Shown here in pieces: positions 2,602 through 51,654 of a stretch of DNA of 62,982 nt. Each line of letters begins with the position of its first letter. The first letter of the stretch is position 1. This DNA is from Methanothrix sp. Lineage in GTDB: Archaea; Halobacteriota; Methanosarcinia; Methanotrichales; Methanotrichaceae. Position numbers and translations under genes: made by a program. A model generated the notes under the pieces. The model worked only from the letters and a program-made list of their open reading frames with translations. It did no database searches and was not told the DNA's origin. The DNA is taken from contig JAXGJB010000011.1 of NCBI GenBank assembly GCA_040770465.1, forward strand, positions 1 through 62,982. The letters run 5' to 3'.

Positions 2602-3588
2602 TTGAGGAGGAAGGAGATAAGGAAGGTCCTGATCGAGAGCCTCGGGGACTGGACCAGTGGCGAGACCCTGGCAGAATCCCTGGGGATCAGCCGGGCCGCC
2701 GTCTGGAAACAGGTCCAATCCCTCCGGGCGGAGGGGTACGATATAGAGGCCTCGAAGAGGGGCTACAGGCTCAGGTCGGTGCCCGACCTCCTCAGCGAAG
2801 ACCTGGTCAGGTCAGGCCTCGAAACGAAGTTTGTAGGAAGGACGATCCTCACCTTCCCCTCCGTCACCTCCACCAACGCCGAGGCGAAGAGGATAGCGCC
2901 CTCGGCCGAGGACGGGACGGTGGTAATCTCCGAGGTCCAGACCGCCGGGAGGGGAAGGATGGAGCGTCCCTGGCTCTCCCCTCGAGGCGGCCTCTGGATG
3001 AGCATCATCCTGAAGCCGAAGATCCCCCCGGCCCTCGCCTTCAGTGTGAACATCGCCGCTGCCGTCGCCGCCGCAAGAGCCCTTGAGGGGCTCTACGGCC
3101 TCAAGGTCAGGATCAAGTGGCCCAACGACCTCCTGGTGGGGGAGAGGAAGATCTGCGGGATTCTTACGGAGATCGGAGCCGAGATGGACCTTTTGGAATA
3201 CGCCGTGGTGGGCATCGGGATCAACGCCAACCTGGATCGCGACCTCCTCCCCCAGGAGTGGAGGGCCACCTCCATATCCGCGGAGCTTGGAAGAGATGTA
3301 TTCCGGGCAGAGCTAGCCGGAAGAGTCCTTGAAGAGGTGGAGAGGGCCTCGGAGGAGATGGCGGAGTCCTTCGACCGGCTCCGGAAAGAATGGTCTGTCC
3401 GCTCCGGGACGTTGGGGCGAAGGGTGAGGATTATAACAAGGAGCGGGGAGTTTGAAGGGGTCGCAGAGGCCCTGGAAGACGACGGGTCGCTTCTGGTGAG
3501 AAGAGACGATGGGGCCCCGGAGAGGGTCATCGCCGGGGACTGCGTCCACCTAAGAGCCGCCAGAGAGAGGACGGATGGTGGAGCGTGA
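2602..3588 (+). CDS. birA: Bifunctional biotin-protein ligase with N-terminal HTH
   Basis: SGETLAESLGISRAAVWK HTH, QTAGRGR, KWPNDL, KICGIL. Confidence 0.93.
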   Translation: MRRKEIRKVLIESLGDWTSGETLAESLGISRAAVWKQVQSLRAEGYDIEASKRGYRLRSVPDLLSEDLVRSGLETKFVGRTILTFPSVTSTNAEAKRIAPSAEDGTVVISEVQTAGRGRMERPWLSPRGGLWMSIILKPKIPPALAFSVNIAAAVAAARALEGLYGLKVRIKWPNDLLVGERKICGILTEIGAEMDLLEYAVVGIGINANLDRDLLPQEWRATSISAELGRDVFRAELAGRVLEEVERASEEMAESFDRLRKEWSVRSGTLGRRVRIITRSGEFEGVAEALEDDGSLLVRRDDGAPERVIAGDCVHLRAARERTDGGA

Positions 3589-3653
3589 CCTCTCGCTTGC
3601 GCTGGCGCAGGGTATTTGTAACTGGAGATTTTTGAGATGAGATGGGGTCATAG

Positions 3654-4070
3654 ATGAAGCGCAAGATAGAGGTGAGGGGGATCGCCAGGGACACGCTCTA
3701 CTTCATCCTCGAGGCCTCCCGATCGACCCTGCCCGTGGAGTTTGCGGGGCTTCTCCGGGCCGAGGACGGCGTCATCACCGAGGTGATCATGCTCCCCGGG
3801 ACCGAGTCGTCGAGCAAGAGCGCCCTCGTCCGGCTTTACATGCTCCCCAACATGAGGATCGTGGGATCGGTCCACAGTCACCCCTCCCCCAACACCCGAC
3901 CCTCTCAGGCGGACCTGATCTTCTTCTCCAAGACCGGCGACTACCACATAATAGCGGGCACCCCCTTCGACATAGAGAGCTGGACCTGCTACGACAGGAC
4001 GGGACGCAAAAGAAGCCTTCCCGTCCTGGACGTGGAGGTCGGGGAGGATGATGAGGACTGGTTTGATTAG
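3654..4070 (+). CDS. JAMM/MPN+ (Mov34) metalloprotease
   Basis: E...GSVHSHPSPNTRPSQADL JAMM motif. Confidence 0.9.
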   Translation: MKRKIEVRGIARDTLYFILEASRSTLPVEFAGLLRAEDGVITEVIMLPGTESSSKSALVRLYMLPNMRIVGSVHSHPSPNTRPSQADLIFFSKTGDYHIIAGTPFDIESWTCYDRTGRKRSLPVLDVEVGEDDEDWFD

Positions 4071-4512
4071 GGTTCTGGCGACGGGAACCTTCGACCTCCT
4101 CCATCCGGGACACCTCATGTACCTGGAGCAGTCGAGGGCCCTCGGCGACGAGCTGGTGGTGATCGTGGCGAGGGACGCCAACGTCAAGCACAAGCCGAAG
4201 CCGATCATCCCCCAGGATCAGAGGCTCCTCATGGTATCGGCTTTGAAGACGGTGGACAGGGCGGTCCTGGGAAGCGAATCGAACATGTTCTCGCCGATAG
4301 AGGAGCTGAAGCCGGACATCATCACCCTGGGGTACGACCAGCACTTCGACGTCGTCCTCCTCAAAGAGGAGCTGGCGACCCGGGGGATCGACGCTGCGGT
4401 GGTGAGGCTGGAGGAGCACGACCCCTGCCCCCTCTGCAGCTCAAGGATGATAGTCGCGAAGATACTCTCCGAACGCTGCTCGAAGGAGGGAGGGCACTCT
4501 CCTGAGGGCTGA
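4048..4512 (+). CDS. ribL: Archaeal FAD synthase
   Basis: ATGTFDLLHPGH nucleotidyltransferase motif, IVARD, KPDIITLGYDQ, C-terminal CPLCSS. Confidence 0.85.
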   Translation: MMRTGLIRVLATGTFDLLHPGHLMYLEQSRALGDELVVIVARDANVKHKPKPIIPQDQRLLMVSALKTVDRAVLGSESNMFSPIEELKPDIITLGYDQHFDVVLLKEELATRGIDAAVVRLEEHDPCPLCSSRMIVAKILSERCSKEGGHSPEG

Positions 4513-4609
4513 TCGGCCTTCCCATCGAGGTCGATCAGCGAAATGGAGGTGCCAGACCTTCTGCCAAAGCGCCAGTTACTTATACCGACCGTCCCTCTTT
4601 GCCGACAAT

Positions 4610-46534: not shown

Positions 46535-46815
46535 CTAGCTTTCGCCGCATCCGGTGCATGTCAGATCCTCGCATGTCAGCTCGTCCGGCTCGTACCCGTA
46601 ATGCTCGAAATCCCAGTTCGGCGGCTGCCATATCCCGCAGGATGCGGCGTCGCACTCACCCTCGACGACGCCGACGTCGATGACGCAGGATGCATAGACC
46701 GGCTGGACAATTGGTCCATCGACGGACCTCGGATCGACCTCGACGGTGTTCGTAAACCTGCCGTCGCCGGGGGCAAGGGTGGAGGCTAGGATGCTGGCGA
46801 AACTGATCTCATCGG
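46535..46815 (-). pseudogene. Orphan C-terminal fragment of a Cys-rich secreted-type protein
   Basis: Frame with no start codon: ...GRFTNTVEVDPRSVDGPIVQPVYASCVIDVGVVEGECDAASCGIWQPPNWDFEHYGYEPDELTCEDLTCTGCGES-stop; in-frame stop upstream. Confidence 0.55.
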
Positions 46816-47293: not shown

Positions 47294-47316
47294 TCACCTC
47301 TCTTGAGGAGAGGTGA
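47294..47316 (+). promoter_or_regulatory. Hairpin covering the Shine-Dalgarno sequence of the kamA-like gene
   Basis: TCACCTCTC-TTGAG-GAGAGGTGA, a perfect 9-bp stem ending 5 nt before ATG 47322. Confidence 0.6.
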
Positions 47317-47321
47317 GGCCA

Positions 47322-48410
47322 ATGTTTGATTCAACGTGCACTTCCGGCGGCGAAACCGATTTTGCGGCCGAATCTTCCGAAGATAAGCCTCCACAAAGAG
47401 CCGAAACCGTCCACGAGCTTCTGGCCCGCCTCGGCGGCGACATGGAGGAGATCGAGCGCGTCAAGCGGGTCTACCCCATGAAGATCAGCAGCCACTTCAT
47501 GAGCCTCATCAAAGAGAAGGACGACCCCATCTGGAGGCAGGCGGTCCCCGCCGCCGAGGAGCTATCCGACTTTCGGAACGTCGCCGACCCGCTCTCGGAG
47601 GGGAGGGACACCAAGGTCCCCGGCCTCATCCACCGCTACCCCGACCGGGTCCTCCTCCTGATCAGCTCCAAGTGCGCCATGTACTGCAGGTTCTGCACCC
47701 GAAAACGGTCCGTCGGGAGGGTCGAGCAGACCCCCATGCAGCAGATCTTCAAGGGGATCGACTACATCCGGGGCCACCCCGAGGTGAGAGACGTCCTCCT
47801 CAGCGGCGGCGATCCGCTCCTCCGGAGTAACCGGGAGCTGGACATCATCCTCCGGGAGCTGAGGTCCATCCCTCACGTCGAGATCATCAGGATAGGGACG
47901 AGGGTACCCTCGGTGATGCCCGAGCGGGTCACCCCGAGGCTCGTCAAGGTCCTCAAGAAGTACCATCCCCTCTACATGAACATCCACTTCGAGCACCCGA
48001 GAGAGATCAACCCCGAGAGCGAGCGGGCCCTCAAGCTCCTCGCCGACGCCGGGATACCCCTGGGGAGCCAGACGGTCCTCCTCCGGGGGGTCAACGACGA
48101 CCCCGAGGTTATGAAGGATCTGATGCAGAAGCTGGTCCGAAACCGGGTCAGGCCCTACTACATCTACCTCTGCGACCTGGTGAAGGGGGTCGAGCACTTC
48201 AGAACACCCCTCCAGACGGGCTTCGACGTGATTCACCATCTACAGGGCCACACCTCGGGGCTCTGCGTCCCCCACCTGATCATAGACTCGCCGGGCGGAG
48301 GAAAGATCCCGATACTTCCGCCCGACTACCTCATCTCCAACGACGAGGAGAAGGCGGTCATATCCAACTACAAGGGCGAGGTCTACGAGTACCCCAACCC
48401 GAGGATCTGA
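47322..48410 (+). CDS. KamA family radical SAM/PLP 2,3-aminomutase
   Basis: GLIHRYPDRVL, CAMYCRFCTRKR, LLSGGDPL, IRIGTR, QTVLLRGVND, RPYYIYLCD, IDSPGGGKIP. Confidence 0.92.
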   Translation: MFDSTCTSGGETDFAAESSEDKPPQRAETVHELLARLGGDMEEIERVKRVYPMKISSHFMSLIKEKDDPIWRQAVPAAEELSDFRNVADPLSEGRDTKVPGLIHRYPDRVLLLISSKCAMYCRFCTRKRSVGRVEQTPMQQIFKGIDYIRGHPEVRDVLLSGGDPLLRSNRELDIILRELRSIPHVEIIRIGTRVPSVMPERVTPRLVKVLKKYHPLYMNIHFEHPREINPESERALKLLADAGIPLGSQTVLLRGVNDDPEVMKDLMQKLVRNRVRPYYIYLCDLVKGVEHFRTPLQTGFDVIHHLQGHTSGLCVPHLIIDSPGGGKIPILPPDYLISNDEEKAVISNYKGEVYEYPNPRI

Positions 48411-48411
48411 G

Positions 48412-49419
48412 ATGAAGGTCGCCCTCACCTGCAACACCCTCCCCCCCGACTACAGCCGGGAGTCGGGGGACGACACCTTCGCCGAGTTCGACGCGCCCTC
48501 GACGATCTCAGCGATCAGAACGGCCCTGCTGAACCGTTGCGACGAGGTCGAGGTGGTCGAGGCGGACGAGGACGCCTACGAGCGGCTCCGGCGCGGAAAC
48601 TTCGACTTCGCCTTCAACATCGCCGAGGGGGTCCGGGGAGAGGCGAGGGAGGCCCAGATCCCGGCGATGCTGGAGATGCTGGGAATCCCCTACTCGGGCT
48701 CCGGGGTCACAACCCTCGCCATAACCCTCGACAAACGAAGGACGAAGGAGGTCCTCGAAGCCAACGGCATCCGGACCCCGAGGTTCCAGCTCCTGAGCCG
48801 GGCCAATGATCTCAGGTCCGACCTCAAATTCCCGCTTTTCTTGAAGCCGAACGGCGAGGGGTCGAGCCGGGGGATCACCGCCAAATCCCTGGTCAGCTCG
48901 AAAGAGGAGCTGGAAGAGACCGTCTCCGAGATGGCGGCGGCTTACCGGCAGCCGGTCCTCGTCGAGGAGTACCTGACGGGTAGAGAGTTCACGGTGGGGC
49001 TCGTTGGAAACCCGCCGGAGGTCCTTCCAATAGTCGAGGTGAGCTTCGAGGGGCTCCCCGCCGGAGCGCCGAAGTTCGACTGCTACGAGGTGAAGTGGAT
49101 TTACGACTCCCTGGATGCGGGGTTCGATACCACGACCTGCCCCGCCAACCTGGACGACGACCTCCGAGCCAGGATCTCTGAGGCGGCGACGAGGACCTTC
49201 GAGGCCCTGGAGGTGAGAGACCTGTGCAGGCTCGACCTCCGACTCGACGAAGACGGCGAGCCATCCGTCTTCGACGTCAACGCCCTCCCCGGACTCATCC
49301 CCGACCCCGCCGAGAACTCCCGGTTCCCCAAGGCCGCCTATGCTGCCGGATACTCGTACGAAGAGCTTATAGGCAGAGTCTTCGATGCAGCTCTCGCACG
49401 AGAGGGAATTTTGAGATGA
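48412..49419 (+). CDS. D-Ala-D-Ala-ligase-like ATP-grasp enzyme
   Basis: FNIAEG, GIPYSGS, DKRRTK, KPNGEGSSRGI, VEEYLTGREFTV, RLDLR, DVNALPGL. Confidence 0.9.
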   Translation: MKVALTCNTLPPDYSRESGDDTFAEFDAPSTISAIRTALLNRCDEVEVVEADEDAYERLRRGNFDFAFNIAEGVRGEAREAQIPAMLEMLGIPYSGSGVTTLAITLDKRRTKEVLEANGIRTPRFQLLSRANDLRSDLKFPLFLKPNGEGSSRGITAKSLVSSKEELEETVSEMAAAYRQPVLVEEYLTGREFTVGLVGNPPEVLPIVEVSFEGLPAGAPKFDCYEVKWIYDSLDAGFDTTTCPANLDDDLRARISEAATRTFEALEVRDLCRLDLRLDEDGEPSVFDVNALPGLIPDPAENSRFPKAAYAAGYSYEELIGRVFDAALAREGILR

Positions 49420-51002
49420 AGGTGGCGATCCTCTACAACATCCCCGGCGAGGGCTCCGCTAGGAGCAAGACCGAGATGGCGGCGGAGACCGAGGTCCTGG
49501 AGACGGTTGAGGGCGCGAAACGGAGCCTGGAAGCGAGAGGCATCGAGGCCGTCCCCCTGAGTTGCAGCCTCGAAGCGCTCTTCTCCTTGCGAAACTTCGA
49601 CCTGGTCATCAACCTCGCCGAGGGCTTTCTCGACGACCTCCGTGCCGAGCCGAACGTCGCCGGGTTCATCGAGCTTCTCGGCGTCCCTTACACCGGCTCC
49701 TCGCCCCGAGCCCTGGAGGTCGCCAGGGACAAGGGGCTCTCAAAGCTCGTCCTCGAGCAGGAGGGGATACCCACCCCCCGGTTCTCGATATTTAGGACCG
49801 CCGCCGACCCATTCAGCCTCGACTTTCCCGTGATCGTCAAGCCCCTCCTGGAAGATGCAAGCATAGGCATCACAGTCGACTCCATATCGAGGGACGAGGA
49901 TGATCTGCGGGCGAAGGTCGCCCGAGTTATCGAGACCTACAGCCAGCCCGCCCTCGTCGAGGAGTACATCGAGGGTAGAGAGGTGAACGCCGCCCTCTTC
50001 ATCGGCCCCGACGGCACAGAAGTCCTCCCCCCATCGGAGATAGTATTCAACCTGCCCGAGGGCGTGCCGAGGATCCTCGGCTTTGAGGCGAAGTGGATCG
50101 AGGACAGCCCCTTCTATCAGAACACGGTGCCCCTCTGCCCAGCCCCCCTGGAGCCGAGGCTGTTGAAGAGGATCGAAAACCTGGCAAAGCGGGCCTGCTC
50201 CGCCCTGGGGGTCGAGAACTACGCCCGGGTCGACTTCCGGATCAGAGACGTTGACGGCGAGCCCTTCGTCATCGAGGTGAACCCCAACCCCTGCATCAAC
50301 CCGACGGGGAGCGGCTTCGCCCGGGCCGCGGCTGCCGCAGGGATGGACTACCCGACGCTCATCGAGAGGATAGCTAGGTCCGCCCTGGACCGGTTTGGCG
50401 CGGCCCATCAGTGGGCCGAGCCGACGAGGGAGGCGGAGAAGGGTGGAAAGGAGGGAATGGAGGGAATGGTCGGCGAAGACGGCGGCTTCTCGGCGGGAAA
50501 TCTCAGATTCGCCCGGGTGAGGGCAAAAGACGCCCCCCTCCTCTTCGGGTGGTTTGAAGACCAGGAGCTGACAAAGTACATGGAGCCCTCATCGTCCCTC
50601 ACGATAGATCAGCTGACCGTCAGCATCCTCTGCTCCAAGGACGAGGATTTCTTGATTTATTGGGCCGAAAGGCCCATCGGGTTTGCCTCCCTCTACGAGA
50701 GGACCCCCTGCACCGGAGAGATCTCGTACCTCATCGGCGACCCTGAGAGGAGGGGCAAGGGCCTTGGTAGAAAGATCGTGGAGGCGCTTCTGGACCACGG
50801 CTTTTTGCGCCTGGGCCTGAGATCGATCTTCGCCTCGGCGACCGTCGAGAACCAGTCGTCGATAAGGGCTCTGGAGGGGGCGGGCTTTCGGAGGATCGGG
50901 ACCCGTCGGGCCTGCTCGCGGCTGGGAGCTTGCTGTCTCGACGACATCCTCTTCGACATCACGAGAGAGGAGTATCTCGCCCGGATATCACATTTATTTT
51001 AA
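49416..51002 (+). CDS. D-Ala-D-Ala-ligase-like ATP-grasp enzyme fused to RimJ/RimL-type GNAT
   Basis: ATG 49416 (ATGA overlap); INLAEG, KPLLEDASIGI, YARVDFR, IEVNPNP; C-terminal RRGKGLG, NQSSIRALEGAGF. Confidence 0.88.
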   Translation: MKVAILYNIPGEGSARSKTEMAAETEVLETVEGAKRSLEARGIEAVPLSCSLEALFSLRNFDLVINLAEGFLDDLRAEPNVAGFIELLGVPYTGSSPRALEVARDKGLSKLVLEQEGIPTPRFSIFRTAADPFSLDFPVIVKPLLEDASIGITVDSISRDEDDLRAKVARVIETYSQPALVEEYIEGREVNAALFIGPDGTEVLPPSEIVFNLPEGVPRILGFEAKWIEDSPFYQNTVPLCPAPLEPRLLKRIENLAKRACSALGVENYARVDFRIRDVDGEPFVIEVNPNPCINPTGSGFARAAAAAGMDYPTLIERIARSALDRFGAAHQWAEPTREAEKGGKEGMEGMVGEDGGFSAGNLRFARVRAKDAPLLFGWFEDQELTKYMEPSSSLTIDQLTVSILCSKDEDFLIYWAERPIGFASLYERTPCTGEISYLIGDPERRGKGLGRKIVEALLDHGFLRLGLRSIFASATVENQSSIRALEGAGFRRIGTRRACSRLGACCLDDILFDITREEYLARISHLF

Positions 51003-51051
51003 AAATTGAGCCGGCAGCTCTGCTAGAGGATGCGCCGCCGCAACTTGACTC

Positions 51052-51654
51052 TCATTTGAGATCATCCCGAGTGGGATGCATTAAATAGCCACCGAATCCA
51101 AGCACCCAAAGAACAAATGGATAAACAATCATTCTCTCCATCCCGCCAGGACCCAATCCTAAATATTGTTTAGTAATATACAGAATGAGTGCAACTGATG
51201 TAATAACCCCAAGAATAATTGATATGTAACGGAATGGAGACTTCAACAAAAAGAATGCTGCGATTGGAGAAAGCCCTCCAGAGACAAAAGTAATTAAGGC
51301 TGCAATGACATGAATTTTACCTGTAAATTCTGGGAAAATACCAACACACATTGCTCCAATGCCTGAAAATGCAATCAAAAAAGAAAGAATATTTGATTTA
51401 AATTCGGAATAGATCAGGTAAGCTGCGATAATAGACAGCACCCCAGTTAAAATAATGGATGTATTAAAAATAGTTGCGGATGGTTGAAAAATATGACAAT
51501 CAGTTCCTCGGCAGGTGGCCCCCAAATCACTGATATAATTTTGTGATACATTATACCCTGGATATAGTTCCTCAGCTACGTTTAATCCAATGTGAAATAT
51601 AAGCATCGAACTAAAAAGAAGCGCACCAGCAAGTTCTCTGTTGAAATGTTTCAT
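51052..51654 (-). CDS. DUF998 membrane protein
   Basis: YPGYNVSQNYISDLGA, GIFPE, GGMERMIVYP; markedly AT-rich. Confidence 0.85.
   Translation of the reverse strand: MKHFNRELAGALLFSSMLIFHIGLNVAEELYPGYNVSQNYISDLGATCRGTDCHIFQPSATIFNTSIILTGVLSIIAAYLIYSEFKSNILSFLIAFSGIGAMCVGIFPEFTGKIHVIAALITFVSGGLSPIAAFFLLKSPFRYISIILGVITSVALILYITKQYLGLGPGGMERMIVYPFVLWVLGFGGYLMHPTRDDLK

Follow-up and report, generated by a model that had tools for sequence, protein, structure and literature searches.

A conserved aminomutase, ligase and acetyltransferase cassette in Methanothrix: a candidate pathway to a derivatised beta-lysine compound

Three genes on the same strand of a Methanothrix sp. contig (JAXGJB010000011.1) encode a KamA-family aminomutase, an ATP-grasp ligase (Lig1) and another ligase that carries a fused GNAT acetyltransferase (Lig2-GNAT), and the question is what such a set could make in a methanogen. 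The window, i.e., the whole stretch of DNA that was analysed, is 62,982 nucleotides long, and the three genes lie at 47322-51002. The preliminary description of this DNA had read them as tightly coupled, and the coordinates of the open reading frames bear this out. KamA starts at the ATG at 47322 and its stop codon (48408-48410) is separated by one base from the ATG of Lig1 (48412), and the TGA of Lig1 (49417-49419) shares an ATGA overlap with the start of Lig2-GNAT (49416), which ends in TAA at 51000-51002. The proteins of 362, 335 and 528 aa have the same lengths as the fellow members of their respective 90% clusters. The domain matches are far beyond chance, so that the assignment to an aminomutase, an ATP-grasp ligase and a second ligase with a fused GNAT also stands. 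The features are collected in Table 1.

Table 1. Features of the operon, in window coordinates
Feature	Positions	Strand	Basis
Shine-Dalgarno-like purine-rich run, 4-17 bases upstream of the KamA start	47305..47318	+	letters only
KamA-family radical-SAM/PLP enzyme, predicted lysine 2,3-aminomutase; short form of 362 aa that lacks the Cys-rich tail at the C-terminus	47322..48410	+	TIGR00238, 2A5H alignment
Lig1, Ddl-fold ATP-grasp ligase (335 aa), of the type fused to KamA in other lineages	48412..49419	+	Dala_Dala_lig_C (PF07478) 6.8e-34
Lig2, Ddl-fold ATP-grasp domain paralogous to Lig1, at residues 1-336 of the fusion	49416..50423	+	Dala_Dala_lig_C (PF07478) 2.8e-25, residues 134-319
Flexible linker between ligase and GNAT, residues 337-354	50424..50477	+	sole stretch of the AF2 model with pLDDT < 50
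Acetyltransferase domain of the GNAT family (residues from about 355 to 528), plus stop codon	50478..51002	+	Acetyltransf_3 3.9e-17, residues 363-492
T/A-rich stretch spanning the stop codon, a possible terminator of the archaeal kind	50993..51007	+	letters only

The surroundings of the operon were also inspected. The gene downstream is a convergent DUF998 gene (51052-51654). The 940-base spacer upstream contained no tRNA and gave only two chance-level Rfam matches (E 0.31 and 0.35), and no leader RNA was found by these searches. No exporter, regulator or hydrolase that would hint at a role was found in the window. The GC content of the operon (0.63-0.64) is similar to that of the rest of the window, and therefore, the composition gives no sign of recent transfer.

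The substrate of the aminomutase was approached through curated models and a solved structure. KamA matched Radical_SAM (2.6e-18) and LAM_C (3.1e-15) in the domain search, and its score of 280.7 bits with the KamA family model TIGR00238 exceeded the curated cut-off of 199.2, in agreement with the genome-wide search. By phmmer, it matched the solved lysine 2,3-aminomutase 2A5H at 2e-117. In this alignment, Arg134, which binds the carboxylate, Asp293 and Asp330, which bind the epsilon-ammonium, and Lys337, the PLP lysine, are all identical, and all three Cys of the cluster motif CxxxCxxC are aligned identically. The scores with the models for EpmB (TIGR03821; 239.3, cut-off 369.3), glutamate 2,3-aminomutase (TIGR04368; 382.1, cut-off 650) and arginine 2,3-aminomutase (TIGR04468; 324.7, cut-off 600) were all below the cut-offs. 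Judged from the residues of its pocket, the aminomutase named in the preliminary description is of the lysine type.

[quoted passage not shown] The cassette differs in its two additional ATP-grasp ligases, in a KamA of another clade and in a GNAT that is not AblB. With the AblA equivalog model TIGR03820, the window KamA scored 449.7, below the cut-off of 525.4; true AblA proteins of the same class scored 658-808, and the KamA proteins of Methanothrix 439-450. A C-terminal tail of 57-59 aa with three or four Cys is present in 14/14 true AblA, while more than one Cys after the core occurs in 0/58 cassette-type KamA, and nothing follows the core in the window protein. In the tree, a branch with a support of 91/100 separates these 14 true AblA, all of the same class, from the window KamA, which is about 52% identical to them. 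A separate ablAB pair had been proposed as a check, and neither a canonical AblA nor an AblB (TIGR03827, no match at E <= 0.001) was found in this 94.85%-complete genome. By its sub-cut-off score, the missing Cys-rich tail and the absence of AblB from the genome, the cassette KamA is not an AblA.

The two ligases are about 38-40% identical to each other. For Lig2, the AF2 model (pLDDT 87.6) was closest by Foldseek to the Ddl structure 6u1k (2.4e-23), and in the model of the whole fusion the ligase and the GNAT are predicted to have no fixed contact across the disordered linker. All Ddl models of NCBIfam scored below the cut-off, the best scores being 188.1 (Lig1) and 132.6 (Lig2) against 243. 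Residues were mapped in E. coli DdlB numbering on 67 Lig1-type and 74 Lig2-type sequences. K97, K144, E180, E187, K215, R255, D257 and N272 are kept in every one of these sequences, and the E270 position is Glu or Asp in all of them. The cassette ligases thus share with Ddl/Van the fold and the full residue set for ATP, Mg and phosphoryl transfer, from which an acyl-phosphate mechanism is expected. They differ in the substrate positions. H63 is replaced by Glu in 67/67 Lig1-type and 71/74 Lig2-type sequences, Y216 by Trp in 62/67 and 74/74, and L282 family-wide by Cys or Arg in Lig1 and by Gly in Lig2; by DdlB mutagenesis and structures, these three are D-Ala site residues. Position 149 is Asp in 74/74 Lig2. 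A further difference is that they sit with a lysine aminomutase instead of cell-wall genes. Both ligases look catalytically intact and, at the aligned substrate positions, unlike Ddl, in keeping with the earlier view that they are unlikely to synthesise D-Ala-D-Ala.

The fused acetyltransferase had been labelled as RimJ/RimL-type, and this label, which was based only on Pfam Acetyltransf_3, did not hold. Among solved structures, the archaeal GNAT profile matched diamine N-acetyltransferase at 1e-20 (profile positions 6-170) and the spermidine N-acetyltransferase SpeG at about 1e-16, i.e., its best solved relatives along the whole length, whereas RimJ (5e-12) and RimL (4e-8) were far behind; AAC(6') was also among the closest relatives. 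The NCBIfam rimI score of the fused GNAT was 22.3, below the cut-off of 86.4. It differs from SpeG and the diamine N-acetyltransferases in being fused to a ligase. This likeness to polyamine and diamine acetyltransferases favours a small amine as the acceptor over a protein or envelope target.

To survey the linkage, 80 loci were fetched with the Lig2-GNAT profile; in 51 of them, the flanks extend for 3 kb or more in each direction. KamA neighbours the ligases in 58 of the 80 loci and in 38 of the 51 with long flanks, and is absent from the other 13. In one lineage with KamA-less cassettes, four of five genomes have a KamA elsewhere, about 50% identical to that of the window. Lig2-GNAT fusions were found in 10/80 loci and KamA-Lig1 fusions in 5/80. 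An ATP-grasp half is present in 92 of the 120 best long KamA homologues, and is of the Lig1 type in 91 of these. No in-frame Lig1-Lig2 fusion was found among the 80 loci. Tandem ATP-grasp proteins of 669-773 aa were considered as such fusions and dropped, because both halves are nearer to Lig1 (32-45% identity). Beyond the core, no flanking family recurs across lineages, and no conserved carrier or target gene was found there. In six or seven KamA-less loci of one lineage, genes for a deoxyhypusine-synthase-like protein and an arginine decarboxylase adjoin the cassette, with plain housekeeping genes on the other flank; the link to polyamines is a lead only.

The cassette is carried in archaea by Methanotrichaceae, Methanoperedens, Thermoplasmatota, Hadarchaeota and Bathyarchaeota, and in bacteria by Thermodesulfobacteriota/Deltaproteobacteria, Aminicenantes, Ignavibacteriota, Bacteroidota and Planctomycetota. 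The cassette always includes a GNAT, which is of two types, i.e., a free protein of 155-177 aa in bacteria and an Acetyltransf_3 domain, fused or free, in archaea. The nearest named solved structures of the bacterial type are RimI-type protein acetyltransferases, at only 5.6e-8, and this type alone accounts for 4495 clusters at E <= 1e-25. By their record titles, the habitats are digesters, groundwater, sediments and hot springs, and are not notably saline. Within Methanothrix, the operon is present in 14 of 15 other genomes, with no stops within the matches. Methanothrix harundinacea is a key acetoclastic methanogen of saline digesters, and its cultured strain 6Ac has the operon. Two RNA libraries from an anaerobic digester contain contigs that overlap in part with KamA, Lig1 and Lig2, a weak observation as DNA carry-over is possible; the GNAT domain and the downstream genes are uncovered, and contigs of this kind cannot show absence. 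The neighbourhood survey thus found the linkage conserved in archaea and bacteria and reinforced by gene fusions, and the similar gene sets that the preliminary description had mentioned in anaerobic bacteria are real. These comparisons of sequences and gene order support the gene set as a functional unit, and the operon is best explained as a copy of a self-contained cassette of four functions that has spread horizontally. All of its enzymes belong to known families, and no description of the cassette was found in a literature search judged mostly on titles and abstract openings.

We favour, with modest confidence, a pathway that starts with the conversion of lysine to beta-lysine, continues with the ligation of beta-lysine by Lig1, and is completed by Lig2 and the GNAT to give an N-acetylated amide or peptide of beta-lysine. 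The KamA-type enzyme would convert L-lysine to beta-lysine, as its residues and close similarity suggest. Because KamA-Lig1 fusions recur, Lig1 would take beta-lysine directly and form the first ATP-dependent amide bond via an acyl phosphate, as Ddl does. The Lig2-GNAT fusions suggest that Lig2 would make a second amide bond and that the GNAT would use acetyl-CoA to acetylate a primary amine left free on that intermediate, the two steps occurring in either order. Beta-lysine could be joined to amino acids, to another beta-lysine or to an amine of the polyamine type. Since 13 of the 51 loci with long flanks have no KamA, the two ligases may accept a different amine as well. The product is most likely a small cytoplasmic compound built on beta-lysine, which could plausibly act as a compatible solute or as a cation resembling a polyamine; the carriers' habitats weaken the osmolyte role. 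More tentatively, it may belong to an unseen class of beta-lysine metabolites, in which the carboxyl, the beta-amine and the epsilon-amine are each derivatised by one of Lig1, Lig2 and the GNAT. Ngg, which has a GNAT and an ATP-grasp ligase in one polypeptide and makes the osmolyte N-acetylglutaminylglutamine amide, would be a functional analogue of Lig2-GNAT; it uses glutamine, is not known to belong to the Ddl clade, and has neither the aminomutase nor the second ligase.

Other explanations were weighed against this pathway. That the operon is merely the Methanothrix version of AblA/AblB seems unlikely to us, although it accords with the operon GNAT being of the diamine-acetylating kind and with a genome that has no other AblB candidate. 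[quoted passage not shown] However, the granules were mixed communities, and the 'ablB' of the paper is an unlinked, marginal GNAT (BLASTP 1.5e-5, HMM 0.011), with none found in strain 6Ac (PMC9128505). The fusions of the ligases to KamA and to the GNAT in other lineages, their occurrence together in most loci, their intact catalytic residues, and the score, position and missing tail of KamA all argue against it. It is scarcely credible that Lig1 and Lig2 are D-Ala-D-Ala (or D-Ala-D-X) ligases of the ordinary kind. They bear this name in databases and have Ddl structures as their best matches in sequence and fold, but every Ddl model is missed, the three D-Ala site residues are substituted throughout the families, linkage and fusions tie the genes to a lysine aminomutase, and to our knowledge Methanothrix has no murein.

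It is known that the KamA-family EpmB provides beta-lysine for a protein modification, and that the ATP-grasp enzyme RimK tails a ribosomal protein. With EpmA/EpmB on EF-P and RimK on S6 as precedents, beta-lysine or a short beta-lysyl chain could be attached to a side chain or a terminus of a protein, or to another macromolecule, and then acetylated, which we regard as improbable. The RimI-like bacterial GNAT would fit such a target, and the cassette KamA, like EpmB, is a short enzyme without the C-terminal tail whose beta-lysine would enter an ATP-dependent ligation. In contrast, EpmA is a LysRS paralogue while the cassette ligases are ATP-grasp enzymes of the Ddl and not the RimK clade, the KamA is well below the EpmB cut-off, the archaeal GNAT is closest to small-amine acetyltransferases, and no conserved target or carrier gene adjoins the cassette. 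Moreover, the cassette occurs in both domains, which have no EF-P-type target in common; we know of no EF-P in archaea. There is little to recommend a polymer or oligomer, such as oligo-beta-lysine or an alternating chain of the cyanophycin kind, capped by the GNAT and serving as storage or polycation. Two ligases could by analogy perform backbone and branch steps, as happens in cyanophycin synthesis, and streptothricins contain oligo-beta-lysine chains, but Ddl-clade enzymes make single bonds, no sequence feature suggests processivity, and the neighbourhood has no conserved primer, hydrolase or granule protein.

If the favoured pathway is correct, a new beta-lysine compound would be made by a conserved set of enzymes represented by thousands of protein clusters, and the natural fusions would give a concrete, testable order of steps. 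It would also correct a published conclusion, as the 'ablA' of M. harundinacea would belong to a different, larger pathway and its 'ablB' is marginal and unlinked. If the more tentative class of fully derivatised metabolites is real, a capped solute or polyamine-like compound would be widespread in anaerobic archaea and bacteria and would have been missed by metabolomics, and the potential for N-acetyl-beta-lysine inferred for M. harundinacea would belong instead to a derivatised beta-lysine compound.

The three genes of the operon were delimited as listed in the table below, and the one-base gap, the ATGA overlap and the domains of the products were all as the preliminary description had them. 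The lengths of the three proteins are the same as those of members of their respective 90% clusters. KamA, the aminomutase, carries radical-SAM and LAM_C domains (Pfam, NCBIfam) and scored 280.7 with TIGR00238, for which the cut-off is 199.2. Lig1, the first Ddl-fold ATP-grasp ligase, matched Dala_Dala_lig_C at 6.8e-34, and Lig2-GNAT, the second ligase fused to an acetyltransferase, matched the same Pfam domain at residues 134-319 (2.8e-25), followed by Acetyltransf_3 at residues 363-492 (3.9e-17). The neighbours of the operon look unrelated to it: 5' of it, on the opposite strand, are LemA and DUF2207 genes, and 3' of it are genes for DUF998 (convergent), a Macro domain and DUF169. The names borne by near-identical proteins and loci assign the window to the Methanothrix harundinacea group (Methanothrix_A / Methanocrinis). 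The 940-base spacer 5' of KamA contained no tRNA, no Rfam match and no conspicuous ORF of 40 aa or more. A GC-rich stretch within it, where metagenome contigs break with many loose ends and the depth doubles, could be what remains of a gene or a junction that varies.

Features of the operon and of the loci compared with it
Feature	Sequence	Position	Strand	Remarks
GC-rich stretch	window	46540-46800		in the spacer 5' of KamA
Purine-rich run	window	47305-47318	+	precedes the KamA ATG; direct reading
KamA	window	47322-48410	+	362 aa; ORF listing and direct reading
Lig1	window	48412-49419	+	335 aa; starts one base past the KamA stop
Lig2-GNAT	window	49416-51002	+	528 aa; start codon and Lig1 stop share ATGA
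Long-form KamA-family gene	L001 (G000, the window's genome, contig C5)	892-2760	+	622 aa
Orphan KamA-family gene	L121 (genome G028, same class)	3527-4603		358 aa
KamA-less cassette in gene row	L096	5525-13508		likewise L087, L064, L065, L066
Regulators between Lig1 and KamA-Lig2	L037	2901-6119		likewise L040, L044, L048; partly L046, L053, L071, L074

KamA matched the solved lysine 2,3-aminomutase of Clostridium (2A5H) at 2e-117, and the cluster cysteines, Arg134, Asp293, Asp330 and Lys337 of 2A5H, which we take to have the functional roles described with that structure, are identical in the alignment. Because these residues are retained, the substrate is likely to be lysine and the product beta-lysine. 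[quoted passage not shown] The AblA model gave 449.7 against a cut-off of 525.4 (NCBIfam), and AblA was detected at 658-808 bits in 26 of 81 genomes of the class, while the window's genus reached only 439-450. A phylogeny, one of the checks proposed earlier, was built in a quick and then a careful version after exclusion of rows with a match shorter than 280 residues or with stops. In the maximum-likelihood tree (72 rows), one side of a branch with a support of 91/100 is made up of the 14 true AblA proteins. The window KamA falls outside them, in a well-supported clade of 10 rows that contains the cassette KamAs of the archaeal groups Methanotrichaceae, Methanoperedens, Thermoplasmatota and Hadarchaeota. 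All 14 AblA proteins have a C-terminal tail of 57-59 aa with three to four cysteines; past the core, the 58 cassette-type KamAs have one cysteine at most, and the window KamA stops at the core. The separate ablAB pair that had been suggested as a search target was not found in the window's genome (94.85% complete): AblB is absent, and the sole other KamA-family gene is the long form on a different contig, which has an N-terminal extension of about 200 aa, scored 328.8 with TIGR00238 but far below the cut-off with all specific aminomutase models, and adjoins neither a GNAT nor a ligase gene. By these comparisons and the match to 2A5H, the window's enzyme belongs with the lysine-type aminomutases but differs from AblA. 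The orphan KamA-family gene at L121 scored about equally (363-369 bits, all below cut-off) with the arginine, lysine and glutamate 2,3-aminomutase models and adjoins a MarR-type regulator and an HAE3 transporter. It has relatives in five more genomes of its family and is a candidate maker of another beta-amino acid.

No description of the cassette was found in the open-access literature, subscription papers being outside the scope of the search. In the available parts of PMC9128505, WP_014586563.1 and KUK95837.1, which share a 90% cluster with the window KamA, are listed as ablA of M. harundinacea. According to the same parts, the paired 'ablB' is unlinked and was assigned at 1.5e-5 by BLASTP and 0.011 by HMM, no 'ablB' was found in strain 6Ac, and the ligases are not mentioned. 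A work cited there (reference 41) reportedly describes acetyl-beta-lysine being released by granules. An earlier paper from the same group contains the same statement in its available parts (PMC6036115).

Ddl is the best match of both ligases in sequence and in fold (the AF2 model of Lig2-GNAT has a pLDDT of 87.6), and every cut-off of the curated Ddl models was far from reached (NCBIfam; 188.1 for Lig1 and 132.6 for Lig2, against 243). We aligned 67 Lig1-type and 74 Lig2-type proteins, the window's own included, to E. coli DdlB, leaving out matches below 150 bits, shorter than 280 residues or with a stop. The residues for ATP, Mg and phosphoryl transfer are intact in all proteins of both sets. 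DdlB His63 is replaced by Glu and Tyr216 by Trp family-wide in both ligases, and Leu282 by Cys or Arg in Lig1 and by Gly in Lig2; in Lig2 only, Gly149 is Asp (74/74) and Ser150 is Ala or Gly. Because the catalytic residues are kept and the substrate positions swapped, both appear to be working ligases with altered, more acidic pockets, and the acidic side chains gained would suit a cationic substrate. The homologue tables also contained 34 proteins of 669-773 aa (P0074-P0118), each with two Ddl-like ATP-grasp halves in tandem, both closer to Lig1 than to Lig2. These are a separate paralogous family, and two genomes of the window's class hold relatives.

The profile of the archaeal fused GNAT matched diamine N-acetyltransferases at 1e-20, many SpeG structures at about 1e-16 and also AAC(6'), whereas RimJ (5e-12) and RimL (4e-8) ranked well lower. 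The closest relatives acetylate primary amines of small polycations, and by these matches the archaeal GNAT is classed as polyamine-type, not Rim-type, so that the RimJ/RimL-type label given initially had to be dropped. The bacterial cassette GNAT is a free protein of 155-177 aa and of a distinct subtype. An orthologue with a solved structure, PDB 2R7H (1.2e-48), was deposited as 'putative D-alanine N-acetyltransferase', a name probably derived from the adjoining 'Ddl' annotation. Scoring of 8000 candidates put at least 4495 clusters in this bacterial family (E <= 1e-25), and the 120 best all lack a functional name.

Of 15 further genomes in the genus, 14 have the operon, and the one without it is only 66% complete; the operon was not found in any of nine other genera of the family. 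Sampling of 301 genomes of the phylum, from 100 genera, found it in eight, which belong to four genera (E <= 1e-50), a patchy distribution. The Lig2-GNAT profile, run against one genome per species, yielded 580 confirmed stretches, and genes were counted at the best 80 loci by tblastn with the window's proteins. Among these best 80 of 580, KamA was found at 58 loci, both ligase types at 67, a GNAT, fused or free, at 50 or more, and all four functions at 39, so the linkage proposed from the window is conserved elsewhere. GNATs are undercounted here: at both Bathyarchaeota loci checked, a free Acetyltransf_3 GNAT that adjoins KamA fell below the threshold. Restricting the count to loci flanked by at least 3 kb on each side left 51, of which 38 have KamA. 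Of five genomes from a deltaproteobacterial lineage whose cassette lacks KamA, four encode, at another site, a KamA that shares about 50% identity with that of the window. The carriers belong, by record titles, to at least five archaeal and at least six bacterial phylum-level groups, the bacterial gene order being Lig1, Lig2, free GNAT, KamA. When all flanking ORFs were clustered, only the core families recurred across lineages.

Two local arrangements were observed. At loci of the L096 type, in one deltaproteobacterial lineage, the cassette is preceded by a deoxyhypusine-synthase-like gene and a pyruvoyl arginine decarboxylase and followed by a methyltransferase and a second GNAT; this could reflect a link to polyamines or simple proximity. 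At loci of the L037 type, in another deltaproteobacterial lineage, the inserted genes encode a histidine kinase, a sigma-54 activator and a single-domain response regulator, suggesting signal-controlled expression.

Lig2 and GNAT are fused at 10 of the 80 loci, and KamA and Lig1 at five (Methanomethylophilaceae, three Thermoplasmatota and Hadarchaeota); at these five the system therefore consists of just two proteins. Among 355 longer KamA homologues (E <= 1e-40), 92 of the best 120 have an ATP-grasp half (table count, BLAST-confirmed), which is Lig1-type in 91 with a median margin over Lig2 of 144.5 bits. Fusions thus pair KamA with Lig1, and Lig2 with GNAT, and we therefore propose an order of steps in which KamA would act first, then Lig1, and then Lig2 with GNAT. 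The general proposal that the operon would make a beta-amino acid, form one or two amide bonds and acylate the product holds. Another 19 of the best 120 long homologues (within P0362-P0387, about 700-745 aa; for example from Dehalococcoides mccartyi) are KamA-GNAT fusions and look like single-chain AblA-AblB-type enzymes; P0364 and P0389 contain an intein/homing-endonuclease insert.

Near-identical DNA occurs in digester and activated-sludge metagenome runs. Contigs from two metatranscriptome libraries give partial coverage (depths 2-4.5) of KamA, Lig1 and Lig2, a weak hint of expression. The operon is real, as first described. Its gene set is a cassette shared widely among archaea and bacteria rather than something peculiar to methanogens, and the window contains the archaeal fused form, in a cultured, industrially important genus.
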